From: a virus
Taxonomy: Duplodnaviria; Heunggongvirae; Uroviricota; Caudoviricetes
Direction: 5' to 3' (one strand)
IMG/VR virus record: IMGVR_UViG_3300027798_000013
Length of the DNA stretch: 64,000 nucleotides
Shown here: positions 12,001 through 42,012 of the stretch, piece after piece
How positions within the stretch are numbered: position 1 is the first letter of the stretch
Layout: the number at the start of each line of letters is the position of its first letter
The notes under the pieces: model-generated
What the model was told of the DNA's origin: nothing
The model's database searches: none
What the model saw: only the letters and a program-made list of their open reading frames with translations
Program-made: the position numbers and the translations under genes

Positions 12001-15000
12001 TGCTTGATATCGGCTCTATCAAAAACAAATCCTGGCACTTCAAAGCCGCCGAACCATTCACTACTAATAAAGCCAGCAACTTTAATACGTTCTTGTCTAT
12101 ATCCGCTTTCTGGATTGTATATAACGTCATTAAACACTGTCGTATTGTCTAAAATTAAGACTTGTTCTTTCTGTACTAGATAAAAACTAGCATTGTAAAT
12201 TGTTCCGTTATCGTCTGGACTAAATGTAACAATATTTCCTTGTCTGTTTGAATTTAAATCTGCCGGTGTCAAGCTACTGCCGTCTACCTTATAGATTTCG
12301 TATTCGTTAAAAGGATTATTAATATCCTCAGCAACGGACAACACTGAACTAAATGATAAACTGTTGGCCGCAGGACTTAGACTTATCACTGCGCTACCCA
12401 CTGTGTTTAATCCATCTAATTTGACGTAATTTGTTTCCTGGAACATGGGCTGGGCTGGAATATTTTGTAAAGCTCGGTAGTAAATATCTTGATATTTTAC
12501 AATAATTCCGTAACCAACTGCTTGATTAGGAATCCATTGTTGCCATGTATCTTGCCCGGTACTCCATTTTTGTGTAGTCCAGAACATAAATTCTTTAGCA
12601 GTGGTGCTCCAGTTTGAAACATTTTCAAGATTATTATTAAAATCTTCAAATATAAATCCTTGAGCTTTTAAATATTCGCCGTATCCTAAAATAAAATCAA
12701 CGACCTGCTGTACACTTGTTAATACAGTGCCGTAAGGTAATACGTTGATACTAGAAGAATCCCACGTATTTCTAAATACTGATGTTACACCTCCGGTGAC
12801 TGGAAGCTCGGGTAGCGCCGCAAATGCGGTTGAATCAAATACATCAGGTGTTACAGCATATAACGTTCTATAATATTTTCCGTTGTAAAATACAGTTTGG
12901 CCCACAGAGTAGGTCTTGCCAGCAGTCCAATTTACAAATGAAGCACTTATGCCGCCAACATTGATACGTGGACCAAGTTCTTGTCGAGGAGCAAAATATT
13001 TAAAAAATGCTTCTGAAAGACTGTACCCTTTGATTTCATATCCTTCAGATAATTTAGTAATGATAATTCCGCTGTAGGATAACTTGGCAATTGGGCTAGA
13101 ACTATTGTAAAATATTTTGTAATTTTCTGGAGGGACAAACACATTTCCAGTGGATGCTGGATTTTTGCTATCTAAGATTAAATTAAAATTGTTTTTACTT
13201 GTAAATCCGCTAACTCTGTAAGATAATTTGATATCCAGATTATCTAAATTATATTGATATTCATCGTAATAACTAACATTATTGTTTACTAGATATTCAA
13301 TCAAGTAGTTTATAATACCCGATGTGTACACTCTAGAACTACTAGAATAAATGCTTGGTAATAAAATATCACGGGGTTTAACATGTAATCCGGTGTCTTT
13401 GTAAACTAACTGTCCGCATAAATTTCTAACAGTTCGTGACTTGTCTAAACAGGTAGCAAGGGTATGCGCTGGTTTTAAAATCATTGATGCAATTAAAATA
13501 CTAAACGGATAATAACTACTGCGACGCCATGCTGACTCAACGGGCGCAACATCTCCAAATATATGACTACCTTGATTATCTGTATTGAACACACCTGTGG
13601 CTAATCTTGCACTAACTGGGCTGACTAGATTGCCGGATTCATCAACTGGTAGATGATTTAATAGATCGGGCCTTGCAAATTGTTTTCGATATTCAGCTGG
13701 CATACCAGGTGCTTTGACTGCACCTTCTTCCAGATCTTTCCACATGATAGTATTATTGCTGGTGTAAGGTGCTGGGCCATATACTTCTTGCCACCAACTA
13801 GGTTCTTCGCTTATTCCCAGCATTTCCCAAGGACATATATTTGGTTTGTCTGTATCATACACCCATCTAAAAATGCCGCGCCAGTATCCAGGTAGTTCTC
13901 TACCGTCTGGTGCAGAATGTCCTCTGTAATTATAAGTAAACGTGCTGTTTTTATCAAACCCTACTTGTTTAGAAAAGTCGCGGCCAACTAAGTTTGCCCA
14001 TTTATAAAATCCCAGAGCTAGTACTCGATTGATTTCATCTAGAGAATAATCAGAATTTCTATAGTATCCTGGAATTATATCGTAGATATCAAATATGTCC
14101 GAGTCGTACTGAATTTGTAAATTATTATAAATTCGTTTTTCTAATTCTAAAATAATATTATCGCGATAATCACCGTATGATAATGTTTGACTTCCGTCGT
14201 GACCTTGAATCATAGTGCGGGGAGTTAATAAACTATAATCAACATAGATTTTTGGCTTGAACTTTGGCCACAATCCTAACTTGGTTGGGGTTGGTGGAAT
14301 GAAACATCCATCGGTACTGTCATATTCAAATACTGTAAGTTTATCTCCGTCTACTAATCCAACAGTGTTGTTAATAGATACATAACCATCAGTTGTAAAA
14401 ATATAATCGATGCCATATAATAATTGTACACCAACTGGGGGCTGAACACCATTAAGATATATAGAAACTGCTTTGTTGCTTAGTTCTGTATTGCTATAAA
14501 CAGTCGTTAATGGGTATGTTCTAATTCGATTATCTACAACTGTATACTCTGTAATTTTTTTACCTGTAAACGGTACCATGTCACTGAAATAGTAAGACGA
14601 TTTTTTTGTTTTATTTGCAGATAATTTTTTAAGTATTAAATCCACTTGAGCAACTACATTTGTATCAGTTCCCAATTGTTGTGCCGCAAGTAAAAAACTG
14701 TGTTTGAATTTGCCGTAGTCATCCCTTGATTTTTCTAAGGCACGTACAATATTGTTTTGTTCGCTTGTGATATGGTACAGGGCTAAACTTGCAGGGCCAC
14801 TGTGTTGTATAAATTTTGTACCGTAAGCAGTAACATTGCCTAAATTTCTAAGATTATTTGATCCTGACACTACTCCTACAAAATTTTCTTGTATATTGTC
14901 AACAATTGAATTTAAGTGGTCAGCTACTTCACCCAATGTGAAATATTTCATATCAATGTTTAAAGGATTGTTTTGTAGATTAATAGGAATCTCATAAAAC

Positions 15001-17222
15001 CCGTTAGCATTAATTGGCTGAGCTGAAAATGCTTTAATTGTTAAAACGTCAGTAGCTAATAAATCTGTAGCAAATTTAATTTGTTTGTAATTAACCGCAT
15101 CGACCAGAGTCCATTTAACGGAATCGACTCGAGTTCCGTTGACAAATATTCTAATTTCTAAATCAATTAAATTTGTTTTATTATCATAGATGTCTAATGG
15201 AAAATTATTTGTTAGGTTAGAATCCTTGTAAATCCTAATGCCGGGCTGATACCGTGTTACCTTGCTGGTTTGCCAACCATTGACATACGTGGTATCATTA
15301 TTAAATTCTATCTTAGATAAAAATCCAGTGTTAACAGACTTAGTAACTAATACTTCGTTTTCTTTATAATCGAAAGTGTCCGATACTAAGTCAAACGAAA
15401 ATAGAATATCGCCTACATTGTTAATGTTTTGATAACTTAGACTGAATCCAAGAACACTGTCAGCTGTAGTTGTTCCTAATTTGTAGGAAAATATTTTGTT
15501 ACCAACAAATCGTGAACCCGAGTACGAAGAAAAACTTTGTTTATTTTCGTCAAACATGTCAAACAACGGTGATTGATTCACTGTTGTTTTTTGTTGCCCC
15601 AATGCCCACGTGGTTTCATTGTACCAAAATGCTTTGCCTTGATATGTTTGGCCTTGCCTTATTAAAATATTTGAATTTTTAACAGGTTTTTCGTCAAGCA
15701 ATAACCGTATCTGCGGCACGCCTATTCCTGAATTTTCAATATTAACAAACGTAACTTTATAAACATTATTTTTTACTAGTATATCCGCATCAGCAAGAAA
15801 CACAATACGCATACCTTCTGCCAAGTCAACTCCATCGATATTGTATCCGGCAGTACCTTCAATCGTACTGAACACATCTGTAGTGTAAGAGTCTACTAGA
15901 TCAACATCGTTGGTCGACAGTACGCCAAAGTTAAAAAGTTTTAAATCTGGGTTAAATTCAATAATAGGTCTTGTTGCACGGCTAGTTTGGTCGAAATCCG
16001 CAAGTTTATTATTAAATGCCGCGCTGTCGTTGATTGTATCTTTGTGGAACCATCGATTGTATCGTGACCACGGATTTCTATCTTTGCTTGCTTTGTTGAT
16101 AGTGACATAATCTAATTTGCCAGCATAGGAACTTGCGGCCGCAAATGGATATTGGTCAAATAATGTTGAATCAAATGCCACAGCTCGATCTTCTGTGTAT
16201 GTACTAATAACTTCAAATATAGTAGTTGGAATTAAACTAATTGCCGTGCCAACGCCTTCAACATAATACTCACCGGTAGCGTAAGTTGCTGGCGTTACAT
16301 TGCCGCCAAATGATACTTTCATACCGTTGCTTAGTGAAGTGCCGTTTGATAGTGTGTAAGTTTTTTTACCTATCAAATCTTTTTCAAGATCAATGTAGGT
16401 GTTTTCTGTAATATCTAAAAACTTAAAAATAGAACCTAAGTTAGAATCACGTTCACTTACGTAGTATAAAGTATCGGGGCCAGAAATAGGAACTATAAAT
16501 TTAACTGTACCGCTTGTAACTCCAAAATTGCTTACATAACCTTCATCTGTATATCTATCTAACGGGCCCAATGTTCTAGCTGTTTTGATACTGAACGGTT
16601 CTCCGGGACTATTAATTTCAAAATAGTAAGTTTGCCCTCTATATAAGGTTACTACTGGATTTCTATCCAAACCGTTTGGCGTAAACAAATACTCTTTTTG
16701 TTGAGTCGCACTTGTGCTAAGTTCTACTTTAAAGGTGCTTGAAACATTTAACTGCTGGCCAACAATATTAACAACATCTGGACCATATGGCAACCAATAA
16801 TATTGTTGGAAATTAATAAATTTATCCCAGTCAATGTGTGGATCCCAGCTGTAAAATTCTTGGCGGTTTAATCGCTCGTGATTGTCAACGTTGCCGCCAA
16901 ACACTTTTAATTGATTAATAAAATCCTGATAATCTTTAAAGAAGTCCACATTACCAGTAGAATCATTTACTACCACTGCTGGCTCTAACTGATAGTTTTG
17001 TCTTACAGTTGTTGGAGCATTGATATAAATGTCTTTGGCGCTGGCCGACTTGGCATTTTTACGGCCGATGTAACCGTTTACTTTTTTGGCTGTGCCTTTT
17101 TGTGTTAGCTGATCTATTGTTGCCTGTATGAATTTTCTATTATCGTCTGTACGATAATATTTAGGCAGTAAATCTACTGTAGAAAAATTGTTAGAACCTG
17201 TTGGATTTGTGTTATCAGACAT
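1..17222 (-). CDS. Giant (at least 5,740 aa, 3'-truncated by window edge) baseplate wedge/structural protein in the gp7 position, with an FG-GAP-like beta-propeller and many inserted beta-rich modules
   Basis: ATG at 17222 overlaps the gp6 stop (ATGTCTGA) and reads MSDNTNPTGSNNFSTVDLLPKYYRTDDNRKFIQATIDQL. The same frame is coding wherever spot-translated and at the window edge (DEIEVFVGGYDT). The ORF track lists no terminated ORF in this frame, consistent with no stop in the window. Confidence 0.85.
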   Translation of the reverse strand, partial: MSDNTNPTGSNNFSTVDLLPKYYRTDDNRKFIQATIDQLTQKGTAKKVNGYIGRKNAKSASAKDIYINAPTTVRQNYQLEPAVVVNDSTGNVDFFKDYQDFINQLKVFGGNVDNHERLNRQEFYSWDPHIDWDKFINFQQYYWLPYGPDVVNIVGQQLNVSSTFKVELSTSATQQKEYLFTPNGLDRNPVVTLYRGQTYYFEINSPGEPFSIKTARTLGPLDRYTDEGYVSNFGVTSGTVKFIVPISGPDTLYYVSERDSNLGSIFKFLDITENTYIDLEKDLIGKKTYTLSNGTSLSNGMKVSFGGNVTPATYATGEYYVEGVGTAISLIPTTIFEVISTYTEDRAVAFDSTLFDQYPFAAASSYAGKLDYVTINKASKDRNPWSRYNRWFHKDTINDSAAFNNKLADFDQTSRATRPIIEFNPDLKLFNFGVLSTNDVDLVDSYTTDVFSTIEGTAGYNIDGVDLAEGMRIVFLADADILVKNNVYKVTFVNIENSGIGVPQIRLLLDEKPVKNSNILIRQGQTYQGKAFWYNETTWALGQQKTTVNQSPLFDMFDENKQSFSSYSGSRFVGNKIFSYKLGTTTADSVLGFSLSYQNINNVGDILFSFDLVSDTFDYKENEVLVTKSVNTGFLSKIEFNNDTTYVNGWQTSKVTRYQPGIRIYKDSNLTNNFPLDIYDNKTNLIDLEIRIFVNGTRVDSVKWTLVDAVNYKQIKFATDLLATDVLTIKAFSAQPINANGFYEIPINLQNNPLNIDMKYFTLGEVADHLNSIVDNIQENFVGVVSGSNNLRNLGNVTAYGTKFIQHSGPASLALYHITSEQNNIVRALEKSRDDYGKFKHSFLLAAQQLGTDTNVVAQVDLILKKLSANKTKKSSYYFSDMVPFTGKKITEYTVVDNRIRTYPLTTVYSNTELSNKAVSIYLNGVQPPVGVQLLYGIDYIFTTDGYVSINNTVGLVDGDKLTVFEYDSTDGCFIPPTPTKLGLWPKFKPKIYVDYSLLTPRTMIQGHDGSQTLSYGDYRDNIILELEKRIYNNLQIQYDSDIFDIYDIIPGYYRNSDYSLDEINRVLALGFYKWANLVGRDFSKQVGFDKNSTFTYNYRGHSAPDGRELPGYWRGIFRWVYDTDKPNICPWEMLGISEEPSWWQEVYGPAPYTSNNTIMWKDLEEGAVKAPGMPAEYRKQFARPDLLNHLPVDESGNLVSPVSARLATGVFNTDNQGSHIFGDVAPVESAWRRSSYYPFSILIASMILKPAHTLATCLDKSRTVRNLCGQLVYKDTGLHVKPRDILLPSIYSSSSRVYTSGIINYLIEYLVNNNVSYYDEYQYNLDNLDIKLSYRVSGFTSKNNFNLILDSKNPASTGNVFVPPENYKIFYNSSSPIAKLSYSGIIITKLSEGYEIKGYSLSEAFFKYFAPRQELGPRINVGGISASFVNWTAGKTYSVGQTVFYNGKYYRTLYAVTPDVFDSTAFAALPELPVTGGVTSVFRNTWDSSSINVLPYGTVLTSVQQVVDFILGYGEYLKAQGFIFEDFNNNLENVSNWSTTAKEFMFWTTQKWSTGQDTWQQWIPNQAVGYGIIVKYQDIYYRALQNIPAQPMFQETNYVKLDGLNTVGSAVISLSPAANSLSFSSVLSVAEDINNPFNEYEIYKVDGSSLTPADLNSNRQGNIVTFSPDDNGTIYNASFYLVQKEQVLILDNTTVFNDVIYNPESGYRQERIKVAGFISSEWFGGFEVPGFVFDRADIKQWSSWADYALGDIVSYQGYYYSAVRFLPGTNEFESNNWMQIKKPQPSLLPNWSYKAGQFEDFYNLDQANFDTGQQKIAQHLVGYQKRQYLSNIIQDNISEFQFYQGMIKEKGTQNSLNKLFDVLSAENKESLTFYEEWGIRVGQYGASQAYEAVEFLIEQPDLTKNPQGFYLTIQPEASSNYNVNISANDVYVKPRGYNAEPWPVNNAQKLFLRTPGYVQPTDQVFQINTLDTLLTTDVTPFNTGMYIWVTFEKTSWNIYRFSSSDISPSDATYNSSNKTITIFSNNQLDSSLLGQYVALKQIAFAGFYKVVDVNLQDFTIEAPLYKPGPEWPTAETISANLEIFRLYSVRAPSIDNANDIIKAFTSPGDKIWIDKDSTNKWAELELTSVYSNTEIRKPYPTSDMAHGRIVVTNLEGTVAAVSTQVGEVIVYSKQGARWIFKQIIKRPFMAQNVFGQNPNALDTFANSMAMSPDGEFLAIGSPRVGLLATKQLPNGNVVCDQSALNSSNLLQGAVSLYQKTTYDEYLLLFTIASGDNTANQQFGSSLAFGNGKLFIGSIGPTGSGSQATIYELRYVAVEGVATVASNLNADGDDVNAIATVVYDGGLSSTTASTNDLVFDGGTALPIENTSDRWLLTKPGISIANGTSYGFGSDISVTNDNSILVIAAPLAGNVYIYSLDSNKNYNLIQTVAGPSQVVSNPTTTDGVFSFNGNTLSGGAGFRTTTDKFLRTTISSVTTTGGSGAGLVVDVIVNSQGVLQTVTVRDPGQNYKINDVITVVNPLGTGGVLALTWATSVFNSGVQYKIGDTVVYGGNYYVAILSTINNSVTNATYWSPLTFASSTTGIDIVTTTSRSGSNLKVKLAHTTTPGALPGSIIIPVTNVTNFELGQLIFSSTVPTAFASNTYITQVNSVTYSGVIQNNVLTVSKITNGLNPVVAEIIGSITDTTLTIEQLAGANIIPGMQLSGTGISGDYVIVSGSGTIWTISNAVTISTREIKATLYETIKPGMQLGNPALDTASSFTAIVTTKGTANLTGATTTLLGGIASMFNATITGITLTFDAITAGDPVTPGMVLTGAGVTAGTKILYGSGNSWIVNTSQTVASPITITGTLVSASISGFILTFTAFSGATLTPGTVLTGGTVIAGTTIVGGSGTSWTVSLSQTSTCTTATVPNGTISGNTLTFTASTGSPVEIGMVLLGGTVLDGTVITGGSGTTWYVNISQSTTCTQATSQAFLLNAEIKDTTLTFTDNTGIGLFAGMVLSGSGVVSGTYVVSGSETEWVVSAIQTVVPTTITGTTVVLTANTPSSGLILLGQRLSGNGVTSGTAIIASGSGTGKEGTYYVSPAQTVNSFAATSQYIITNPVIIDGITITGAAISGTALTFSGQSGGNVRVGMLVTGSNVLTGTKIVSGSGGSWQVSVTQAVVSTTLLLTGTGRGGIGTYIIDQELTVGLTPTVATGLTINIPLAATLTGSAEVTSLKISNQGFGYAIGDTVTFNRGGGQITMSISTVTANGSIAVATIGDGSVTKDSTQFGQSVAISKNGDYVAIGSPLQSDLQENEGRVYILSNNSAVGNTYREYQQILNPRQQSGDLFGFNIKFANDYKTLLIYSPGADSFDLTTFDTTETIFDSGSLVFKEISQNSGRIDVYDRYSKNWISGESLYTGGSNADGFGQSFAASDNTILVGAPHETEISENISGNPIIEINSGKVYSYEKFAGSFSWTPVHKQTDLIDIKKIKQAFLYNKVSNKLIRYLDIIDPSLGKIAGSAEQEISYKTFYDPAIYTVGSSSVNVDIGNSWQNKQAGKLWWDLRTAKFIDNHSENLIYRNSTLNMLASGASIDIYEWVETQLTPTEWKIQADTDAGLVNNISGTPLYTDSYSVKQYFNAFNNAFENTYYFWVKNKKLIPNVADRNISANAVSELISNPRGQGYPFIALTGKNSFSLINCQNLLNGDNVILGIEYWIIEQSDQNIHAQWKLIDNSTSTKLPAVIEEKWFDSLCGKDQADRPVPDLNLPAKLRYGIESRPRQGMFVNNFEALKQFVERVNLVLINEQIVGQRNISKLESYDAEPQLFTGVFDTIVDTDAELRIVSVSTAKSAVISPVIVNGSIVDVVIQSGGSGYKSSPTITIKGSGVGAKLKAIIDVAGVITGAEIISKGKGYTNSATLQIRPFSVLVRSDSVANGNWSIYSYVTNTITGIQSWVRVKTQSYDVRNYWNKIDWYATGFNQFSIIDFAVDVFAELGTVDPEIGQTVKVRISGSTGWQLLLCYSKSTSVDWTQRFQVIGIENGTLQLSSKLYSFVNNNIGYDSSIYDNTGYDYTASKELRILLNSLKDDILIDTLKSEYLNLFFAGIRYAHTEQTYIDWAFKTSFVKAQHNVGKLKQTITYKNDNLENFQDYIAEVVPYRTTVREFVSNYTSIDNSSSVITDFDLPAIFGSGNNSVIKTFVKDGKITGDRSEIQTYPWKHWLSNVGFQITSITIIDNGSGYVTAPIVRIISNSGSGAVAQAFIANGKVNRILLVSSGTGYLSAPTIIIDGGSSASGSTAKAIAVIGKSNVRSSFIKMKFDRTTNTYYTIQLNETHSFSGTGNKTKFSLVWAPDVKIGQSTVKVDNALVLRDNYTLTTVKSTAKGYTTYSGFITLKTAPALGSTLTVEYLKDIDLLNASDRIQYYYNPTTGQLGKSLDQLMTGVDYGGVIVTGLDYSVSQGWGSIGFMQDLWDSYENTYSDYAVTISNETVISRSFTLPYMPEVFTNINVYYSKIFNTSFTSDGSQLIYTLPSAYTFVDAIQIYLNKIVAGLTVNVTATSTEQISVTQLLTGFNYLKTASTTNLSLGKAIKIISGSFGGFITNLTYYVVAIIDSTTFKVGASVGGSEFTVAGGTGNMVIQYATSSNYLTAPTASLFSGLAFQFNGAVFGGLATGVTYYVKDIVSPTLFTVSATIGGSVFPVSSAQGTMPLSQVAAAPAATVNLNNITGLKVGDLANCSIPGAIADGTSIKQILTATNQVILTNILYGDILAGIQINFVRSLAAPIDFRYLTSVSLQLSEPPSAGAIINVTTSFDPVRIDDENFAKQWVITGTEAGTNIVTTITPITFNIGDTIGFTGTLFGNIQPATTYYIKEIPTNRTFKISATLAGPEYILVSASGSMIGRSTGNPNAVMSTYIADGTAPIITIPSTYTLIAGDVIIFRKSSSDGAVPISASDFDTALDGGTLEYNSATGLNPDDIIVDGDGFVTTNTSGAPEEVVPGQVVDSVAIKVFDRPSDGSATVKVLNYVADGVNKKFSLEQFPNSQDAVYIKLNSTVLATGIDYYLDYPNKQVVLRNVPTNGSIVTLHSFGFNGTNILDADYFVADGKTKEFITKAPYVNTDFNYLVYLDGVAINPTLFKTDNTYDSPNRIGFRFSIAPTKFQTLNYLIVLGNQQTYAVFKNEKLATNGSSTYTLSNTIGSSVPLETSVLVRANQQILQGPRTTYFTISTNQYTYTLDILSVQPYSVNTADLTVYADGILLELNTDYIVDTSAVSISINKKVYSKYKGKRLIINVKSDQDYYIVGNTITFSQAYGLSDYVEVVSAYKHDILQIQRTRTKATNNLQFSSVNADYYRYVGVLGGRIELPSTILTEPQLWVTKNKLLLINGVDYRVNPDLTSITLGTPPAINDEFEAIIFAGESVKAGISYMQFKDMLNRTVYKRLNLYKQNELIQDLYYYDKEIFVKDAGNFDKPNPAINKPGVVEINGERIEYFTVKNNTTLGQLRRGTLGTGVPTVHGTGSKVQDIGPSETIPYVDTFKTEQITIDNYTTKLIIPLSFVPGKTTSSWSATPASLKLFDNAVIQKFVSKTGTGPYLVTFAVPQQSYTPALNKLLLVANNSNTKYNGYHTVSSSNISNSITIVPQSVNPFVPVGSTIDVTFAISTQTTAPVTGIYYVISGSNPIEYNGAWLCSASTSTSITLSIPNNYGVFKVLPSLIKSTHTITVSYDTDPGVYSTKLITTLSASTYGEADEIEVFVGGYDT

Positions 17223-26174: not shown

Positions 26175-27032
26175 ATGACAGCAAAAATCAATTACTTGAA
26201 CAACAAAGATATGCTTTTGGAAATACATAGATCTAAAAGCAGTTATTGTAGTTTTACCGATCCAAAGTTTCATCAATATGACTTAATTATACCCAGCACA
26301 GACAAGGTAAACATACGCACAGTTGCCGAGGCCAAACGCAATCAAGCCAAACGTATTGGAGATGCTGAGTATCAAAGGCGCAAAAAACTAGGTGAAAAAG
26401 TCAAACAAGCAGACTGCGAAGTAGACTATAAAAAAATTCAAAAGCTGGATTTGGTATTCAGGGTTATGACTTTTGACCATATTCCTCTGAACAGCACACG
26501 TAAGAAAAATCCCAAAAGTCTAGCTGACCACAGAGACAAGGTGAACTTTCCACCGTTCCAACATTGGAAGTTCAATGATACAGACGAACTAGTTTGTGTG
26601 GGTAAAAGCCACTGGAAGGGCACATTGGACAAGGGCCACTTTGATAAAGATGCTGGACAAATTACACCTACACTGGCCCGCATGATGATTAAACTGTGTG
26701 AACGATATGCTACCCGTGGCAACGTTCGTGGCTATACTTACAATGACGAAATGCGGGGACAAGCTATTTTACAGCTAACACAAGTGGGCTTGCAGTTTGA
26801 TGAAAGCAAGAGTGACAATCCGTTTGCTTATTTTACTGCGGCTGTGACCAACAGCTTTGTTCGTGTTATCAACATTGAAAAACGCAACCAAAACATCCGC
26901 GATGATATACTAGAAATGAATGGTATGAATCCATCATACTCACGTACCGGCGCTGGAGAACATGCGGCCGCACTTAAACGTCATGCAGAGGACACAACTA
27001 ATGAATCAACCAATGACACACCAACTGTTTAA
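26175..27032 (+). CDS. gp55: Late-transcription RNA polymerase sigma factor, T4 gp55-like
   Basis: NYLNNKDMLLEI, NVRGYTYNDEMRGQAILQL and FDESKSDNPFAYFTAAVTNSFVRVINIEKRNQ motifs; syntenic with gp47/gp46; start reassigned to the ATG with an RBS. Confidence 0.9.
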   Translation: MTAKINYLNNKDMLLEIHRSKSSYCSFTDPKFHQYDLIIPSTDKVNIRTVAEAKRNQAKRIGDAEYQRRKKLGEKVKQADCEVDYKKIQKLDLVFRVMTFDHIPLNSTRKKNPKSLADHRDKVNFPPFQHWKFNDTDELVCVGKSHWKGTLDKGHFDKDAGQITPTLARMMIKLCERYATRGNVRGYTYNDEMRGQAILQLTQVGLQFDESKSDNPFAYFTAAVTNSFVRVINIEKRNQNIRDDILEMNGMNPSYSRTGAGEHAAALKRHAEDTTNESTNDTPTV

Positions 27033-28029
27033 AAAAGTTGCCTGTTTCACAGACATTCACTTTGGATTAAAATCCAACAGCAGTGTACATAACCAAGACT
27101 GCGAAGATTTTGTGGATTGGTATATTGCCAAAGCAAAAGAGGAAGGGTGTGATGTTGGCATCTTTATGGGAGATTGGCATCACAATCGCAACAGTCTTAA
27201 TATTACTACTATGGACTATAGCCTTAGAGCCCTTGAAAAACTGGGACAGGCTTTCGATAAGTTTTATTTCTTTCCTGGCAACCATGATCTTTATTACAAA
27301 GACAAGCGGGACATCCACAGCGTTGAATTCGGAAAGTATATTCCTGGCATCACTGTGGTACATGAGCCCGTTACTATTGGTGACGTTACTTTATGTCCTT
27401 GGCTCGTTGGGGACGAATGGCGAAGCATAGGCAAGAAAGGCGGCAAGTATATCTTTGGTCACTTTGAATTGCCCAGCTTCTTTATGAACGCAATGGTACA
27501 GATGCCGGATCACGGTGAGATTGCACTGGATAGTTTTAAAGGTTATGAGCTGGGATTTAGCGGACATTTCCACAAACGTCAGCAACAAAAGAACATGATT
27601 TACATTGGCAATGCTTTCCCGCACAACTATGCAGACACATGGGATGATGACAGAGGCATGATGATACTGGAGTGGGACGGCGAACCTCAATATCACAGCT
27701 GGCCTAATCAACCTACGTTTCGTACAGTTACACTGAGTCGTTTGATTGATGAAGCTGATACCATTATCAAACCCAAACAACATTTACGTGTTGCACTGGA
27801 TATTGATATCAGCTACGAAGAAGCTAGTTTTATTAAAGAAAAGTTTATTACAGATTATGCTATTCGTGAACTTACTTTGATTACAGAACGCAAAGAAGTT
27901 GAAATGAATACCAATATAGATATCCAGTCGTTTGAATCCGTAGACCAGATTGTCTCCAATCAGATTGTAAACATTGACTCAGACACATATAATAAGAATA
28001 CCTTGCTGGAAATTTATAATAGCCTATGA
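27001..28029 (+). CDS. gp47: Recombination endonuclease subunit gp47 (Mre11/SbcD metallophosphoesterase)
   Basis: FTDIHFG, FMGDWHH, PGNHD, FGHFE and FSGHFH phosphoesterase motifs; start is ATG 27001 (GAGGA upstream) or 27013. Confidence 0.93.
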   Translation: MNQPMTHQLFKKVACFTDIHFGLKSNSSVHNQDCEDFVDWYIAKAKEEGCDVGIFMGDWHHNRNSLNITTMDYSLRALEKLGQAFDKFYFFPGNHDLYYKDKRDIHSVEFGKYIPGITVVHEPVTIGDVTLCPWLVGDEWRSIGKKGGKYIFGHFELPSFFMNAMVQMPDHGEIALDSFKGYELGFSGHFHKRQQQKNMIYIGNAFPHNYADTWDDDRGMMILEWDGEPQYHSWPNQPTFRTVTLSRLIDEADTIIKPKQHLRVALDIDISYEEASFIKEKFITDYAIRELTLITERKEVEMNTNIDIQSFESVDQIVSNQIVNIDSDTYNKNTLLEIYNSL

Positions 28030-29804
28030 TAAAGATTAAAGAATTAACTGTTAAAAACTTCATGAGTGTGGGCAATCAAACTCAAGGAGTTGCTTTTGAC
28101 AAAGCCAACCTAACACTTGTGCTGGGTGAGAACTTGGATCAAGGTGGTGATGACAGTGGTAGCCGTAATGGTACTGGAAAAACAACCATTGTGAATGCAC
28201 TGAGTTTTGCCCTGTTTGGTAATGCTCTTACCAACATTAAAAAAGACAATCTTATCAACAAGATCAACAACAAAAATATGTTGGTCACATTGAGCTTTGA
28301 AAAGAATGACATCAACTATCGCATCGAGCGTGGGCGCAAACCTACACTCATGCGTTTCTTTGTGGATGATCACGAACAACACGCAGAAGAAACAGATGAC
28401 GCACAGGGCGACATGCGTGAAACACAGAAAGACTTAGATGACTTGCTGGGCATGAGTCATGACATGTTCAAGCATATCGTTGCGCTTAACACTTATACAG
28501 AGCCGTTCTTAAGTATGCGGGCCAATGACCAACGTGCTATTATTGAGCAGTTATTGGGCATTACAATTCTTAGTGAAAAAGCAGAAACACTCAAAGAACT
28601 AATTAGAACAACCAAAGATCAAGTGCTACAAGAAAGCGCAGATATAGAGGCCGCTAAAAAGTCCAATGAGAAAATTCAGCTTAGTGTTGACAGTTTAATC
28701 ACAAGACAAAATGCTTGGAATACTCAACACGAAGCAGATATCGAAAAAACTGCACGGGCTATTATTGAACTTGAAAGTGTGGACATTGAAGCTGAGCTTG
28801 CCGAGCACAGCGAGCTAAAACTTTTTGAAGAAAAGACTGCCAAGCTGAAAAGTCTCGCTAAGGAGCGGGCAACGCTAGACAGCGCAACAGCGCAAGCGGA
28901 GCGAAGCGTAAAAAAATACGCTGACGAGCTTGCTAAGTTGAAGGACAAAAAATGCCACGCTTGTGAACAAGAACTGCATGATCACAAACATGAAGAAATG
29001 AGCGCCACTGCTCAACAGCACTTGGCGGAAGCCAACCGATACAACAACAAAGTGGCCGCGGACCTTGCTAAAATCATGAAAGAGATCGCCGCTATTGGCG
29101 AAGTTGCTGGGCGTCCCAATACCTATTATGATACTGTAGAGGCCGCACTGAAACATCAGAACAATTTGAAAACTCTTGAAACACAATTGACTGTGAAAGC
29201 AGGCGAAGCGGATCCTTATCAGGAGCAAATTGACGAACTGCGTCACACGGCCATGCAGGAAATCTCATGGGACACAGTCAACACTCTCAACACACTAAAA
29301 GACCATCAGGAGTTTTTGTTAAAACTATTGACCAGCAAAGATTCGTTTATACGCAAAAAGATCATAGATCAAAACCTAGCTTATCTCAACAATCGCTTAA
29401 CGTATTATCTTGACAAGATGGGATTGCCGCACACAGTGGTATTCCAAAATGACTTGACCGTTGAGATAACACAGCTGGGGCAAGACTTGGATTTTGACAA
29501 TCTAAGTCGAGGAGAGCGTAACAGACTTATATTGGGTTTGAGTTGGAGTTTCCGTGACGTGTGGGAAAGTCTATATCAGCAGATCAACCTGTTGTTTGTG
29601 GACGAATTAATCGACAACGGCCTGGATGCGTCGGGTGTTGAAGGTGCGTTGGCAGTGCTTAAAAAGATGAGCCGTGAACGCAAAAAGAACATCTTCTTGA
29701 TCAGTCACAAGGATGAATTGATTGGGCGGGTAAACAACGTGCTTAAAGTCATTAAAGAAAATGGCTTTACCAGCTACGCAAATGATTTAGAGGTAACAGA
29801 ATAA
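28026..29804 (+). CDS. gp46: Recombination endonuclease ATPase subunit gp46 (Rad50/SbcC)
   Basis: KNFMSVGN, Walker A NGTGKTT, coiled coil with CHAC zinc hook, LSRGE signature, Walker B LLFVDE and ISH. Confidence 0.95.
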   Translation: MIKIKELTVKNFMSVGNQTQGVAFDKANLTLVLGENLDQGGDDSGSRNGTGKTTIVNALSFALFGNALTNIKKDNLINKINNKNMLVTLSFEKNDINYRIERGRKPTLMRFFVDDHEQHAEETDDAQGDMRETQKDLDDLLGMSHDMFKHIVALNTYTEPFLSMRANDQRAIIEQLLGITILSEKAETLKELIRTTKDQVLQESADIEAAKKSNEKIQLSVDSLITRQNAWNTQHEADIEKTARAIIELESVDIEAELAEHSELKLFEEKTAKLKSLAKERATLDSATAQAERSVKKYADELAKLKDKKCHACEQELHDHKHEEMSATAQQHLAEANRYNNKVAADLAKIMKEIAAIGEVAGRPNTYYDTVEAALKHQNNLKTLETQLTVKAGEADPYQEQIDELRHTAMQEISWDTVNTLNTLKDHQEFLLKLLTSKDSFIRKKIIDQNLAYLNNRLTYYLDKMGLPHTVVFQNDLTVEITQLGQDLDFDNLSRGERNRLILGLSWSFRDVWESLYQQINLLFVDELIDNGLDASGVEGALAVLKKMSRERKKNIFLISHKDELIGRVNNVLKVIKENGFTSYANDLEVTE

Positions 29805-30022
29805 TGAATATGGATCAAGCCGCTGTCTGGTTAAGCGCCAGTATTTTAATAATGTTGGGTTTTGTAATTGTGGTAGCTGGTGCTGTTGTTATCAACAATA
29901 TCATACATAGATTCTGGAAACCCATACGTATTTTTACATCGGACAGTTGGAATCTAAACCCTCCCATACAGTATCCGTCACAAGAAGATCCGGTGCTGAC
30001 CAAGGAACAACCTAACAAATGA
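29804..30022 (+). CDS. Small single-pass membrane protein
   Basis: Hydrophobic stretch AAVWLSASILIMLGFVIVVAGAVVI; TAATG coupling to gp46 (start may be the second ATG). Confidence 0.65.
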   Translation: MNMDQAAVWLSASILIMLGFVIVVAGAVVINNIIHRFWKPIRIFTSDSWNLNPPIQYPSQEDPVLTKEQPNK

Positions 30023-30261
30023 TTCCACAGGATGAAGAACTACACTCGCAGATCATGCGGGCGTTTAATGAGTACTTCAAAGCAAATCAGCGTTGGATCA
30101 ATCGAGGCACACGCCGTGCTGGGGAACAAACACGATACTGGTTAGCCCAGATTCGTATCCTGTCACGTGAAAGGCGAAAACTAATACAAGACTGGCGTCA
30201 CGCAGTGGACGCTACAAAGGCTCAAAAGAAGCAGGGGACCGGAGACGCAGACACTAACTAG
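30019..30261 (+). CDS. Small basic helical hypothetical protein (possible nucleic-acid binding)
   Basis: AAGGA RBS, overlap with the upstream stop, Arg/Lys-rich sequence. Confidence 0.7.
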   Translation: MIPQDEELHSQIMRAFNEYFKANQRWINRGTRRAGEQTRYWLAQIRILSRERRKLIQDWRHAVDATKAQKKQGTGDADTN

Positions 30262-30264
30262 TGT

Positions 30265-30693
30265 ATGTCTTGGACTTATGAAAATACTTTAATAGAAATC
30301 CTGCCCGAAGAATGTGTGGGTTTCGTATATCTCATAACCAACACAATCTCTGGACGCATGTATATAGGCAAAAAATTAGCCAAGTTCGCCAAAACATCCT
30401 ACCGGGTGGTCAAGCTCAAGAACGGAACTAAGAAAAAAAAGAAAATACGGTCAAAAATTGATTCGGATTGGCGTGATTATTACGGTTCAAATCTAGAATT
30501 AAATGTGGACGTATTGAAATTAGGCAAAGAAAACTTCACTCGAGAAATCCTATACTACTGCACATCCAAGGCGCAATGCTCTTACTTCGAGGCCAGAGAA
30601 CAATTCACCCGCAAAGTTCTAGAATCAAAAGACTATTATAACGGCCAGATATCTGTCCGTGTGCATGGTTCACACATACTCAAAGGCCAATAA
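30265..30693 (+). CDS. Stand-alone GIY-YIG family nuclease
   Basis: GFVYLITNTISGRMYIGKK (GIY-YIG), YYGS, conserved Glu helix CSYFEAREQF and YYN; Lys-rich insert; 142 aa with no C-terminal DNA-binding domain. Confidence 0.85.
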   Translation: MSWTYENTLIEILPEECVGFVYLITNTISGRMYIGKKLAKFAKTSYRVVKLKNGTKKKKKIRSKIDSDWRDYYGSNLELNVDVLKLGKENFTREILYYCTSKAQCSYFEAREQFTRKVLESKDYYNGQISVRVHGSHILKGQ

Positions 30694-31169
30694 TTCAGGC
30701 TGTTTAACTGCCAAATAAGCCCGCACAGGCGACCATATTGTGCCCTTACAGCTGGATCACGGATCGCAGTGAATGGAATTCCTTACCTTGGCGGAAGGGT
30801 TTAAAATCACTATCGTAACAGACGCGGATTGGATATGCCTATAACCAGTTTGATTTTAAAGAGAAAATATTTAGAAAGGCTAAAAGAGGGAGAAATACCC
30901 GCGGCTATTGGCATGTTAACGTATGCTCATAGACCTGCCGTTGTAATTAAGACTCAGCTCGTGGTACCGGACAACCGCCACTGTAATGCTGTAACGTTAA
31001 GTGAACTGCTCAACTCAGATAATGTTCATTTTTAGCCCGTCAGGGCTAAGTGTGACTACACAATCTAGATAATATTTACAGTGCTTCGCACTTGATTACT
31101 ACACAGTAAGAAACAGAAAAAGCTCGAGCGAAAGCGAAGAGCAGATGTACGCAGTACATCTTTCAATAC
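30694..31169 (+). ncRNA. Putative large structured non-coding element (ncRNA and/or structured DNA origin), family unknown
   Basis: The only long intergenic gap in the window, with more than 10 hairpins, e.g. TTTAAAATCA/TGATTTTAAA (30800-30809/30851-30860), TTAGCCC-GTCA-GGGCTAA (31032-31049) and AGATGTAC-GCA-GTACATCT (31143-31161). G.U pairs favour the plus strand. Confidence 0.6.
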
Positions 31170-31177
31170 TATAAATA
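31170..31177 (+). promoter_or_regulatory. Perfect T4 late promoter TATAAATA (probably leaderless transcript)
   Basis: TATAAATA 7 nt before ATG 31185, with no SD in between. Confidence 0.8.
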
Positions 31178-31184
31178 ACATATC

Positions 31185-31994
31185 ATGAAGATTTTAGACA
31201 TAATAACTGAAGCCGCAACTCCTGTTACTGCTGAAGCAGTGGCACTGGCTTGGATAACAGCAAACCCTGACCAAGCTGATGCACATCGGGCGGCACTAGA
31301 AAAGAAATGGACTGCTGGCAACAGTGCCATGCGATTTTTTAAAACCACTAATATATGGTTGCCTACTATAGAAGCTGGTGCCAAAGTATATGCTTTGGAA
31401 CAAATTGCTGGACAGCCCCTTGCACAATTCAAACAAGGCTATCCTGAGTTTGCCAGCTACACAGAAGAGCAAAAAGCAATATGGATCAGCAAGGCAAGAG
31501 ATGAAATATTTGGCATATGGGTCGCTCAGTATGCCACACAAGCTCTGATACGATTTGCATTTGGATCTGCTTCATTACTGGGAACATTTTTACGCACATT
31601 TGGCGGAGCGGCTGGCACTGTCATTACTAAAAAACCTGGCATTGCCGGTAAATTGATTGAAGAAGGTATAGTTGCGGCCGCACAGGTATTTCTATCAAGC
31701 CCGTATGGAACCAAAATGATAAAAGAATATATTGGTCCTGCATTTTTCAATGTGCCAGGTGCAATAGTTACTGGTAGTTGGGATTGGTTAGTTAAGTGGA
31801 TTGAAGAGTGGACCGGTATCAATATCAATAAAACGGTCACACCTAATATTACTGCCGCAGTGGACGTGGCATCAGCCGCAAGTACCAATGGCATAAAATG
31901 GTCCGATCCTGCGCAGGACGCTAAAGACTATGCTGATTTTGAAAAGCAGACACGATCAAGAGGCATGACAGGTAAAATGCCAGGTCAACTTTAA
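31185..31994 (+). CDS. Hypothetical late protein, candidate internal head/ejected protein
   Basis: 269 aa under a late promoter; N-terminus MKILDIITE resembles a capsid-targeting peptide; Gly/Ala-rich amphipathic core. Confidence 0.7.
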   Translation: MKILDIITEAATPVTAEAVALAWITANPDQADAHRAALEKKWTAGNSAMRFFKTTNIWLPTIEAGAKVYALEQIAGQPLAQFKQGYPEFASYTEEQKAIWISKARDEIFGIWVAQYATQALIRFAFGSASLLGTFLRTFGGAAGTVITKKPGIAGKLIEEGIVAAAQVFLSSPYGTKMIKEYIGPAFFNVPGAIVTGSWDWLVKWIEEWTGININKTVTPNITAAVDVASAASTNGIKWSDPAQDAKDYADFEKQTRSRGMTGKMPGQL

Positions 31995-32224
31995 ACCAAC
32001 GGCATTCCACTTTTCTGTGTGATCTCAATGTTTTCTTCAATGATGGTGCCCATCAGTGTTAGATCTTCTTTGCTAAGTGTAAACAACAAATCGTCTATGC
32101 CAACACCGCCACGCATGTACCAGCATATACGAAACAATGTGGTCTTGAGTCGCTTGACATCTTTTTCTAGCCTAACTAGATATTCTTCAATTTCTTCGTT
32201 GGAAAGTCTAATTAGGCGTTGGCG
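31991..32224 (-). CDS. -1 frame extension (77 aa) of the gp26-like gene; putative frameshift product or gp51-like hub/tail assembly chaperone
   Basis: Open frame RQRLIRLSNEEIEEYLVRLEKDVKRLKTTLFRICWYMRGGVGIDDLLFTLSKEDLTLMGTIIEENIEITQKSGMPLV* begins right at T TTT TTC and exactly fills the gap between two genes. Confidence 0.7.
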   Translation of the reverse strand, partial: RQRLIRLSNEEIEEYLVRLEKDVKRLKTTLFRICWYMRGGVGIDDLLFTLSKEDLTLMGTIIEENIEITQKSGMPLV

Positions 32225-36933: not shown

Positions 36934-36936
36934 ATA
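36931..36936 (+). promoter_or_regulatory. Late promoter core TAAATA overlapping the portal stop codon
   Basis: The TAA stop is the first half of TAAATA; ATG 36942 follows 5 nt later without an SD. Confidence 0.6.
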
Positions 36937-36941
36937 TTAAC

Positions 36942-37181
36942 ATGATACTACGTGAACTTTTTAACATGTCGGATGCTGGACGCAATGTCAATGACATGCG
37001 CTACAATCCATTGCGCGATCAATCAGCTATGAAGAAATCCGACACACGTAAAACAAGATTGACACTATCACAGATCAACGAACTTCGCAAAGGTAGCGAA
37101 GCACATATACTAGAACAAGAGCATGAACTAGCTTTCATCAACAAGATGTATGCTAAACCACCAATGCCAGCACCGGCATAA
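36942..37181 (+). CDS. Small head-module protein (79 aa), function unknown
   Basis: Lies between portal and core genes; basic DTRKTRLTLSQINELRK segment. Confidence 0.75.
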   Translation: MILRELFNMSDAGRNVNDMRYNPLRDQSAMKKSDTRKTRLTLSQINELRKGSEAHILEQEHELAFINKMYAKPPMPAPA

Positions 37182-37217
37182 ACGGGTTAGTACATAAAAC
37201 GAGCTGTTTTTATACTA

Positions 37218-37250
37218 TATCAGCAAGTATTTTGCTGATACGTGTAAATA
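37218..37250 (+). promoter_or_regulatory. Inverted repeat TATCAGCAA/TTGCTGATA followed by late promoter TAAATA (37245-37250)
   Basis: Perfect 9-bp stem with 5-nt loop directly upstream of the late box for the core-protease-scaffold-capsid genes. Confidence 0.6.
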
Positions 37251-37287
37251 TCATACAGCCTTGTATTCATATTCACAGGAGACAAAC

Positions 37288-41251: not shown

Positions 41252-41346
41252 TAAATACATAGTAATGATCCACACAGGGTGGATTTTATGCGGATATCCA
41301 ACCGCGTACAGCCTAGAACGCTGTTATTTCTTAAGGAGAAAATAAA
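41252..41346 (+). promoter_or_regulatory. Late promoter TAAATA plus about 85-nt three-hairpin 5' leader
   Basis: TAAATA 41252-41257; stems at 41267-41285, 41287-41308 and 41308-41324; then TAAGGAG RBS. Confidence 0.65.
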
Positions 41347-42012
41347 ATGGGACGTCCTTTACATAAAAAATTCTTTGGTAATACCAATACTGCTGGTGTC
41401 GGCGGCGAGGGTGTTGCAAGTGCAACAGCTCCAGCTGGCACGTTAGCATCATTAGTCAACGGTACTTACGCAATTCCAGGCGCAAGCATCACTGCACCGC
41501 AAATCCAAGGCGGCGTAAAACCAACACTAAATGTTGTGGTAACTGGCACAACAACCTACACAGTAACAGTAGTCACAGCAGGCTCAGGTTACACCGCTGC
41601 TCCTACAATTACATTTGCTGGTACCGTTGCAGGTGGCTCTGGTAGTGCTACTCCAATAGCAACATTGACAGCAACAGTTGGCGATGCCATTGTGTGTCAA
41701 GGCATCACAGCTGGTACAACAAACCGTACAACTGGTAACGACATTATCAAACAAGTGTCAAGTCGTCGTTATCAAATTCAGACTCAAGACGGTACAGCAA
41801 TCTGCGCACTAAAAGCAAGTGCTCCAACAGCGGCAGGTGAGATGGCCATTGTTGCTGTTGATGCTTCCGCTGGTACATATTATGTTACTAAGTTGACTAA
41901 AAATAGAGCCACATTAATAGTTGGTACTGGCACAGTTTTTACTAGCGGTTCGTCAGTTCCTTGGACTTTTGGATCAGCAACAGCAACAGTTTGCCAAATC
42001 CCAAGTGCGTAA
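41347..42012 (+). CDS. Putative virion structural protein (head decoration/fibre candidate)
   Basis: Own late promoter and strong RBS directly after the capsid gene; Thr/Ala/Gly-rich with TVVTAGSGYTAAPTITF module. Confidence 0.65.
   Translation: MGRPLHKKFFGNTNTAGVGGEGVASATAPAGTLASLVNGTYAIPGASITAPQIQGGVKPTLNVVVTGTTTYTVTVVTAGSGYTAAPTITFAGTVAGGSGSATPIATLTATVGDAIVCQGITAGTTNRTTGNDIIKQVSSRRYQIQTQDGTAICALKASAPTAAGEMAIVAVDASAGTYYVTKLTKNRATLIVGTGTVFTSGSSVPWTFGSATATVCQIPSA

Follow-up and report, generated by a model that had tools for sequence, protein, structure and literature searches.

Several compact nucleases, among them IscB and TnpB with their omega RNAs and the HEARO-associated enzymes, are encoded next to a structured RNA, and in the IS110 family a structured bridge RNA lies beside the gene for a DEDD recombinase. 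Phages and prophages carry large orphan structured RNAs such as GOLLD and ROOL; RNAs this large and complex are rare, and have frequently proved to be ribozymes or parts of machines. In phage T4, GIY-YIG open reading frames (ORFs) of the I-TevI type are found within structured introns, and the phage also has free-standing GIY-YIG homing endonucleases (Seg type), among them SegB, whose gene lies in the tRNA gene cluster. In this study, we revisited a locus in a stretch of 64,000 nt (the window) from the Caudoviricetes record IMGVR_UViG_3300027798_000013 of IMG/VR, in which the gene for a small GIY-YIG nuclease is followed directly by a long non-coding gap that an earlier note, made from the sequence alone, had read as one half of a candidate nuclease-RNA system. 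We report that the Polynucleobacter-1 RNA is encoded here at its full length, about 455 nt on the plus strand, and we consider it rather probable that this is an autonomous structured RNA of which the Seg-like nuclease is a neighbour.

Polynucleobacter-1 was described by Weinberg et al. 2010 (PMC2864571), whose table rates it as likely to be an RNA and likely to be cis-regulatory, with 'Burkholderiales, fresh water/estuary' as its source, and whose supplement file 3 contains 16 representatives. The seed alignment contains one Polynucleobacter genome row of 135 nt together with longer metagenome rows, and the consensus drawing (supplement file 6, as text) holds motifs of what we call the middle domain along with the label 'pseudoknot?'; the 5′ and middle domains of the element were therefore already seen in 2010. 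In the portions of that paper accessible to us there is no trace of the 3′ domain described below, nor of a jumbo T4-like phage setting or a GIY-YIG neighbour, and a literature search by the name Polynucleobacter-1 returned this discovery paper as its sole find.

Results

Using cmscan, the Rfam model RF01718 (Polynucleobacter-1 RNA) was matched at 30718-30860 (+) with 84.9 bits against a gathering threshold of 37 (E 1.4e-16). The match spans model positions 1-141 of 141, and the consensus helices of the family are kept, helices 3-9 each having 2-6 pairs that changed on both sides. The element therefore belongs to a described family, contrary to the earlier note, which had not recognised it as one and had itself set a match of this kind against its proposal. 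What is shared with the 2010 motif is the whole-model match of the 5′ domain, the freshwater origin and the middle-domain motifs with a possible pseudoknot. The Rfam model covers the first third only, whereas the element (about 30708-31161, +) continues through a middle domain (30866-31000, +) and a 3′ domain (31001-31161), the latter with two direct repeats, R1 and R2, and two terminal hairpins. The 3′ domain has no Rfam match, and a permissive Rfam scan of 30600-31300 gave nothing beyond RF01718 except a chance-level queA match (18.1 bits, E 0.83). Compared with RF01718, the element adds a 3′ domain, and it gives the family a clear genomic home.

The fold was worked out on 148 full copies of the element, which were reduced to 119 non-redundant representatives and aligned with MAFFT, and the 105 proposed pairs were tested on an independent alignment, A1 (57 sequences, MAFFT only). 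On A1, 88.0% of the cells are paired, compared with 74.2% in shuffles, none of 500 of which reached the observed value, and with 35-44% when the partners were slid; 783 cells are changed on both sides, as against 243 in the shuffles and 128-158 with slid partners, and the covariation score is 0.361 as against 0.155 and about 0.07, respectively. Changes on both sides were found at 81 of the 105 pairs, and the top pairs by mutual information with average product correction (MI-APC; z >20, 119 sequences) are nearly all Watson-Crick. Among the paired cells G.U outnumbers A.C by 868 to 224, and the plus strand is therefore the folded strand. The gap had been described in the earlier note as tiled with hairpins up to 31169: the hairpins exceed chance, the covariation supports the fold and the last hairpin ends close by, at 31161. 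The note had also offered the element as a cis-acting DNA substrate (origin or packaging site), which the G.U excess speaks against for most of its length; for the two R repeats a DNA role would be possible.

The element comprises about 16 helix regions and four pseudoknot helices, all given here on the plus strand, and its first paired strand starts about 15 nt past the stop codon of the GIY-YIG gene. This strand belongs to the pseudoknot PK1 (30710-14/30788-92), in which the 5′ tail pairs with the loop of the third hairpin; PK1 begins 5′ of the start of the Rfam model, and 3 of its 5 pairs changed on both sides (GC in 54, AT in 43, TA in 9 and GT in 9, with others). Within the 5′ domain (30718-30860, the RF01718 match), 30719-21/30728-30 crosses 30723-27/30739-43, two hairpins follow (30751-55/30765-70 and 30779-84/30796-800), and 30801-09/30851-59 encloses 30810-15/30820-24 and 30827-32/30845-50. 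At positions 30813/30823, in the small hairpin of this domain, the covariation is non-Watson-Crick, with T-C in 78 sequences, C-T in 41 and nothing else. The middle domain has the helices 30878-80/30937-39 and 30888-90/30898-900 and a long hairpin, 30903-14/30923-35, the loop of which (30916-22) pairs with 30994-31000 to form PK2, where all pairs (7/7) changed on both sides. A further pseudoknot, PK3 (30940-44/30971-75), crosses 30955-58/30988-91 and 30961-64/30978-81, and the pair 30955-30991 is GC in 51, CG in 47, TA in 11, GT in 4 and AT in 2. The 3′ domain consists of a GC-rich hairpin between R1 and R2 (31030-37/31043-50), a hairpin with a UUCG loop (31080-84/31088-92), where 4 of 5 pairs changed on both sides, a terminal hairpin with a GAAA loop (31122-25/31139-42 with 31128-29/31134-35) and a last terminal hairpin (31143-50/31154-61), in which the pair 31146-31158 is TA in 67, AT in 26 and CG in 21. 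Two relatives lack parts of the RNA. In locus L158 (1982-2419) the GIY-YIG ORF runs into the RNA, whose 5′ domain is short of roughly its first 100 positions, with the middle and 3′ domains kept. In locus L083 (element at 2238-2631) about 55 nt are gone, including the 3′ strand of PK2, R1 and the GC-rich hairpin, which may be a true deletion or an assembly collapse.

The two direct repeats of the 3′ domain are single-stranded. R1 (31011-31026, +) and R2 (31061-31076, +), which follows 50 nt after it, each have a 7-nt variable core (31017-31023 and 31067-31073, respectively) and flank the GC-rich hairpin; their own flanks are conserved yet different, with ACTC before R1 and ATCT before R2, and carry G or A after the core. 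The cores differ between phages, but within one RNA they are always identical. At the four variable positions R1 equals R2 in 118/118 sequences, with AA in 61 and GG in 57 at 31017/31067, GG in 107, CC in 8 and AA in 3 at 31018/31068, AA in 82 and GG in 36 at 31021/31071, and TT in 102, AA in 12 and GG in 4 at 31023/31073. In a tree from which these columns were left out, 31017/31067 shows at least 24 changes in each repeat, and the independent pairs that lie on supported branches all agree in direction at this position (14/14, p 1.2e-4). The columns between R1 and R2 are without the identity signal, and block exchange therefore fails to explain the rule. Locus L063 (8780-8860) has a 6-nt insertion at the same place in both repeats, CGAAAG in R1 and CGAAGG in R2, and in a second subfamily of the RNA, which is linked to an integrase gene, the cores are quite different and 8 nt long, and are again identical within each RNA, following the same ACTC and ATCT flanks.

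MI-APC revealed no complementary third segment inside the element that covaries with R1 and R2, and among the columns of the GIY-YIG protein and of the small protein orf80 none tracks the R states above control RNA columns. Nor is the R 7-mer enriched in the window (20 copies, about 18 expected), and it is not a shared promoter motif. RNAalifold proposed a helix of R1 with the flank of R2, which is broken by the GC-type cores. As the cores have switched so many times, a co-evolving protein behind the identity rule seems unlikely. The rule may stem from direct contact between the two strands, from pairing of both to one nucleic-acid partner, or from template switching or recombination acting on the DNA.

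Relatives were collected by a gp46 query of viral_contigs, which gave 602 related stretches, the best 80 of which were kept as loci. The GIY-YIG gene is present in 53/53 of the kept loci that reach at least 3.6 kb downstream, and nhmmer found all three RNA domains in 44 of these and only the 3′ domain in 7; by nhmmer alone, L048 has no RNA domain and L063 only the 5′ domain. With a covariance model made from 45 phage copies of the 3′ domain, this domain was recovered in L051, L014, L063 and L048 (E 1e-19 to 5e-10), which makes it the part of the RNA that is kept most widely. Both the linkage to the GIY-YIG gene in relatives and the covariation that the earlier note had proposed to look for were thus found. 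Three long related contigs each carry one RF01718 copy. The runs containing the stretch are labelled freshwater or lake metagenome, except for two runs of one sample labelled crustacean metagenome.

To sample RNA loci without reference to the nuclease, two pattern scans were made, which overlap in part with the gp46 set; the counts that follow are of the matches listed. Loci with at least 720 nt upstream numbered 71 in scan 1 and 74 in scan 2 (145 in total), of which 4 + 5 = 9 were chance matches of the 17- and 21-mers without the RNA (L114, L122, L146, L154, L213, L226, L243, L267 and L281), leaving 67 and 69 true RNA loci, 136 in total. In 8 of these (5 + 3) an extra ORF of 257-341 aa stands between the GIY-YIG gene and the RNA, and the scan-1 loci of this kind have a radical-SAM/SPASM-type gene upstream of the GIY-YIG gene, where gp46 would be. 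The GIY-YIG gene is missing from 3 of the 136 (1 + 2): in L136 (1654-2220) it is replaced by a PD-(D/E)XK nuclease gene (PF24608, E 5.6e-30; phrog_244, with a RusA-like resolvase label), in L242 (1640-2152) a PD-(D/E)XK-type ORF that by eye resembles that of L136 takes its place, and a further ORF of 252 aa, bearing HNH-like motifs, lies between gp46 and the homologue of orf80, and in L278, where the flank is cut short, another ORF is present.

The RNA was also found in an unrelated setting. An 18-mer typical of the 2010 seed rows led to ten metagenome loci, five of which, two of them near-identical, contain RF01718 (94-98 bits); in all five the model built from phage copies alone places the 3′ domain 170-300 nt downstream of this match and on its strand (E 5.6e-12 to 3.6e-5). 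An 18-mer from the seed rows gave 3 chance loci in genome_contigs, none with RF01718, and 0 in viral_contigs. In this second subfamily a divergent DUF6641 gene precedes the RNA where the flank allows, and a gene for a 188-aa Phage_integrase protein (tyrosine integrase) follows on the same strand within 0.25-1.2 kb. No GIY-YIG gene lies within the flanks of the five loci (tblastn, E<=0.01), and their 39 ORFs are without a match in the window or in the phage loci. The RNA thus forms a self-contained module, present in at least two unrelated kinds of element. Conversely, the GIY-YIG family is present in 509 phage records, 339 of them Synechococcus, with Prochlorococcus, Sinorhizobium, Erwinia, Stenotrophomonas and others, and among the matches listed its homologues in cultured phages, with 34-49% identity, are without the RNA. 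The Melnitz, P-HM1, S-SRM01 and ACP17 phages have the gene in four different contexts with a gap of only about 0-150 nt behind it; in S-SRM01 and ACP17 it is the lone plus-strand gene among minus-strand genes, and RF01718 is absent from the whole Melnitz record.

The nuclease ORF (30265-30693, +; 142 aa) matches Pfam PF19835 (SegE_GIY-YIG) over residues 3-129 with all 123 profile positions (107.2 bits against a threshold of 25, E 8.5e-31), and no other Pfam family is matched. In 90 GIY-YIG proteins V21, Y22, Y33, G35, K36, K37, R93, E109, E112 and N126 are at least 98% conserved and G19 at least 90%, the GIY and YIG motifs being retained; R93, E109/E112 and N126 we take to be the catalytic Arg, Glu and Asn of GIY-YIG enzymes. 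The AlphaFold model (pLDDT 85.2) has one domain, in which the Lys-rich arm forms a predicted beta-hairpin (residues 40-66), so that the earlier description of the protein as a catalytic domain with a Lys-rich arm is borne out. Its best structural match by VIA-align is the catalytic domain of I-TevI (1ln0; Z 8.4, rmsd 2.7, 82 residues aligned), followed by 9u75 (PD-T4-3, specific for 5-hydroxymethylcytosine; Z 7.1), 1ycz (the N-terminal domain of UvrC; Z 5.6) and 2wsh (T4 EndoII; Z 5.3), so that GIY-YIG nucleases fill the top four places of the structure search against representatives. Foldseek alone gave E 0.45, which is not significant, and sequence searches of solved structures gave nothing significant. 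A separate DNA-binding domain, a feature of Seg-type homing endonucleases, is absent from this protein of 142 aa, which the profile covers from residue 3 to 129. Another such feature is sporadic presence among close relatives, and the gene was found in every one of the 53 gp46 loci noted above, its position varying across phage families. The protein is therefore Seg-like by family and lacks two classical features of homing endonucleases. Judged from its sequence, the gene is an I-TevI/Seg-like stand-alone catalytic domain of a family widespread in T4-like phages. The protein also matches phrog_447 (E 5.1e-35), which is labelled 'NAD synthetase', and the annotations of the family vary between this, 'homing endonuclease' and 'GIY-YIG'; the 'NAD synthetase' label, found in many GenBank/RefSeq phage records as well as in phrog_447, looks like a propagated misannotation.

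The ORF-free gap behind the nuclease gene, 30694-31184, is 491 nt long, the next ORF starting at 31185, and is the longest in the window; the earlier note had called it the only long one. The next longest gaps noticed are about 327 nt (36934-37260) and 217 nt (31995-32211), and the rest of the window is filled with ORFs. No coding signal was seen in it: the longest ORF of the element has a median of 38 aa in the 119 relatives compared with 43 aa in shuffles, and a 68-aa frame of the window (30829-31035) is open in only 1/119. Nearly all related loci have an ORF-free stretch after the GIY-YIG gene, commonly of about 450-520 nt and in some cases longer. The RNA always stands close behind the stop of a same-strand ORF, whether this is the GIY-YIG gene, the PD-(D/E)XK nuclease gene or the extra ORF. 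A late-promoter-like TATAAATA (31170-31177, +), which matches the T4 late-promoter consensus and is one of 3 exact copies in the window, lies just before the downstream gene, a 269-aa ORF of no family (31185-31994, +) that is not conserved as a neighbour of the RNA. ATAAATA occurs within 80 nt after the element in 56/89 relatives compared with 58/2380 random 90-nt windows, and among relatives the first ORF of at least 90 aa behind the element has plus orientation in 55 cases and minus orientation in 31, which speaks against the RNA being the 5′ untranslated region of that gene. Of the words sampled, 34-56% are present in six metatranscriptome runs. In four runs, which come from four studies, RNA-library contigs extend across the stop of the GIY-YIG gene into the RNA (30525-30819, 30525-30842, 30525-31011 and 30525-30731), and another covers 30882-31056; the contig breaks at 30525 and 30731 were not taken as RNA ends because strain variation coincides with them.

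Upstream of the gap lies a T4-like recombination operon, in which a gp47-like ORF (26962-28029, +; Metallophos) is followed by a gp46-like recombination nuclease subunit (28026-29804, +; Pfam AAA_23 and SMC_N), two small ORFs and the GIY-YIG ORF. The gp46-like ORF shares 48-49% identity (tblastn) with the PA5oct and Phosso genes annotated as 'recombination endonuclease subunit' or 'exonuclease'. The small ORFs are orf72 (29804-30022), between the gp46-like ORF and orf80, and orf80 (30019-30261, +), which encodes a small Arg-rich protein that has no Pfam or PHROG match and is kept by most relatives between gp46 and the GIY-YIG gene; tblastn matched its homologues at most loci, and also upstream of the PD-(D/E)XK replacement gene. 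By gp46, the nearest cultured phages are two jumbo phages, Sinorhizobium phage Phosso and Pseudomonas phage PA5oct, and by the GIY-YIG protein Methylophilales phage Melnitz, all below 50% identity; blastn in distant mode of 29800-32000 against 50,697 phage records gave no match. PA5oct (record 76516-77180; L329 7867-8531) and Phosso (L330 7410-8425) have an unannotated hairpin-rich gap near gp46 that adjoins a Holliday-junction-resolvase gene. Rfam, nhmmer (E<=10) and the 3′-domain model found nothing significant in these gaps (best 11.6 bits, E 0.26); their terminal hairpins resemble those of the RNA by eye, which we regard as a lead only. As far as the accessible part of the source tells, the four non-coding RNAs reported for PA5oct lie outside its gap near gp46 (PMC7318152).

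The window contains three giant ORFs, 3-17222 (-; at least 5740 aa, off the window start), 48991-56838 (+; 2615 aa) and 56893-63999 (+; at least 2369 aa, past the window end). One related contig is 356 kb long, with an estimated completeness of 96%, and together with the giant ORFs this suggests a jumbo phage. No tRNAs were found in the window. A second catalogued freshwater motif, the freshwater-2 RNA of Rfam (RF02980), was matched at 41268-41349 (+) with 74.7 bits (gathering threshold 49.9); the match ends in a Shine-Dalgarno-like run and the ATG of an ORF at 41347-42012. The 327-nt gap mentioned above precedes an ORF with a TTG start.

Discussion

We favour, as rather probable, the view that the gap encodes an autonomous structured RNA. 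It would be made as the 3′ end of a gp47-gp46-orf72-orf80-GIY transcript, perhaps then to be cut free, and would act in its own right, as a folded scaffold or as a catalytic RNA, being neither guide nor cofactor of the GIY-YIG enzyme. Its action would require the same sequence in the two single-stranded 7-8-nt cores of R1 and R2, which we read as the two strands touching each other or as strands with one common nucleic-acid partner. Within this one clade, the nuclease gene would lie beside it through synteny, or because mobile genes for nucleases and integrases are drawn to conserved RNA genes. The element ends in two stable hairpins just ahead of the late-promoter-like TATAAATA. The family match, the fold and its strand, the conservation, the occurrence of nuclease and RNA apart from each other and the identity of the R cores are results of this study; the form of the transcript, the action in trans and the partner are inferred.

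Several observations weigh against this view. Upstream of the RNA a GIY-YIG gene is present in 133/136 loci of the two scans and directly adjacent in 61 + 64 = 125/136, and this adjacency is kept while the gp46-to-GIY distance ranges from 221 to 1907 nt and the downstream strand switches, which is tighter than plain synteny needs; the phage-locus counts are not independent events, as all come from one clade. Where the GIY-YIG gene is replaced in L136 and L242, the replacement is again a nuclease gene, and in the integrase context the neighbour is again a DNA-cutting enzyme. A consensus scan of the gap found neither a promoter nor a canonical U-tract terminator (4 promoter-like sites, 5.6 in shuffles; 2 terminator-like sites, 2.6 in shuffles). 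In favour of the proposed transcript, the RNA-library contigs give a weak hint of co-transcription of the GIY-YIG gene and the RNA, weak because DNA carry-over is possible and because such contigs cannot show strand, ends or level.

The rival explanations are taken here in falling order of probability. The first is that the fold is a cis-acting 3′-end element that only protects or terminates the upstream early or middle transcript and insulates the late genes, with no function in trans. This would account for the fixed position of the element, always after a same-strand stop and before a late-promoter-like motif or a convergent gene, which is held though the upstream gene can change, and for its two stable hairpins at the end. 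However, an element of some 455 nt, with four pseudoknot helices and unpaired bases of which many are invariant, goes far beyond what a 3′ stabiliser needs, the missing U-tract terminator does not fit a terminator, the model gives the identity rule of R1 and R2 no role, and in its second context the RNA is by itself, with a divergent gene before it and an integrase gene behind it. We therefore consider this explanation unlikely.

It is rather improbable that the twin repeats are in the first place sites on the DNA, used in recombination or template switching, bound by origin or packaging proteins, or targeted by the neighbouring nuclease or integrase, with the remainder of the element being an RNA gene that such enzymes home to. 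The cores are identical rather than complementary and have conserved, differing flanks in both subfamilies; the neighbours are GIY-YIG, PD-(D/E)XK, an HNH ORF (L242) or a tyrosine integrase; the natural variant L083 lacks R1 and the hairpin; and the R regions are without Watson-Crick covariation, all of which would suit such sites. On the other hand, the cores lie between covarying RNA helices, no inverted-repeat arms like those of core recombination sites were seen (by eye only), the spacing of 50-59 nt is too short for excision, and elsewhere in the window the motif shows no enrichment. The contigs, too, show no joints, which proves little.

The proposal of the earlier note, that the RNA is the scaffold or guide of a domain-only GIY-YIG enzyme, which would take its choice of target from the RNA, perhaps through R1 and R2, now appears distinctly improbable. 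It draws on the same counts of presence and adjacency and on their persistence while both outer neighbours vary, on a protein that is a catalytic domain only, on the RNA-library contigs that join the 3′ end of the GIY-YIG gene to the RNA, and on R1 and R2 being single-stranded and variable between phages, as guide segments would be. Against it, nuclease and RNA each occur alone, the RNA beside DUF6641 and integrase genes and the nuclease family in cultured phages; a PD-(D/E)XK gene replaces the GIY-YIG gene in 2 loci and an ORF is inserted between in 8; L158 does without roughly the first 100 nt of the 5′ domain; and no GIY-YIG column covaries with the R states above controls, while the cores are only 7-8 nt long. 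The variable guide-like segment that the note had suggested looking for was not found with any target: the variable linkers are A-rich spacers of 7-70 nt, and a 21-mer from one of them had 0 matches in viral_contigs, the R cores being too short as queries.

A more specific idea, which we hold to be very improbable, is that R1 and R2 are paired recognition strands that bridge two nucleic-acid sites sharing the core, in the service of the neighbouring DNA-cutting enzyme (GIY-YIG, PD-(D/E)XK or tyrosine integrase, depending on the element), or else that they form a parallel helix in which like pairs with like, a motif that to our knowledge is not known in natural RNAs. A group I intron, or the remnant of one, carrying a GIY-YIG homing endonuclease is practically excluded, since, although the nearest solved fold is that of I-TevI, no intron family is found at E<=10 in 30600-31300, orf80 lies tightly upstream of the ORF and a 5′ intron half is missing, and there is no split gene flanking, the downstream gene differing between relatives.

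Comparison with the better-known systems bears on how the locus may be viewed. With the Seg-type enzymes of T4 it shares a small GIY-YIG gene of the SegE_GIY-YIG family beside structured RNA genes in a T4-like phage, and the presence of other nuclease genes (PD-(D/E)XK, HNH) at the same spot in some relatives; it differs in a GIY-YIG protein that is without a DNA-binding domain, is fixed in the clade and keeps its catalytic residues in 90 proteins. Like IscB, TnpB and HEARO it has a compact nuclease gene by a large same-strand structured RNA in mobile DNA, but here the nuclease has the GIY-YIG fold, no guide end with targets was found, and nuclease and RNA each occur alone. The second subfamily recalls the bridge RNA of IS110 in that the RNA stands upstream of a same-strand integrase gene and has two segments sharing a short core; here the enzyme is a tyrosine integrase, or in the phage a nuclease, and this is a resemblance only. 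GOLLD and ROOL are likewise phage-borne and hundreds of nucleotides long, with many helices and pseudoknots, whereas the RNA described here has no Rfam match to them and no tRNA neighbours.

Polynucleobacter-1, an orphan Rfam motif since 2010, thus gains its full length, three domains and four pseudoknot helices, and it gains carriers, on the one hand a large clade of T4-like phages from fresh water, probably jumbo phages, and on the other a separate element with an integrase gene. The motif was labelled probably cis-regulatory in 2010; here the gene downstream differs between relatives, also in its strand, and is set off from the RNA by a late-promoter-like motif, and this evidence counts against that label. 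The adjacent minimal GIY-YIG nuclease is probably not RNA-guided, which corrects a tempting over-reading of such a gene. The identity-covarying cores of R1 and R2 are a concrete, testable oddity, and if the bridging or like-with-like reading of them were true, they would represent a new kind of RNA device in freshwater phages and integrative elements.

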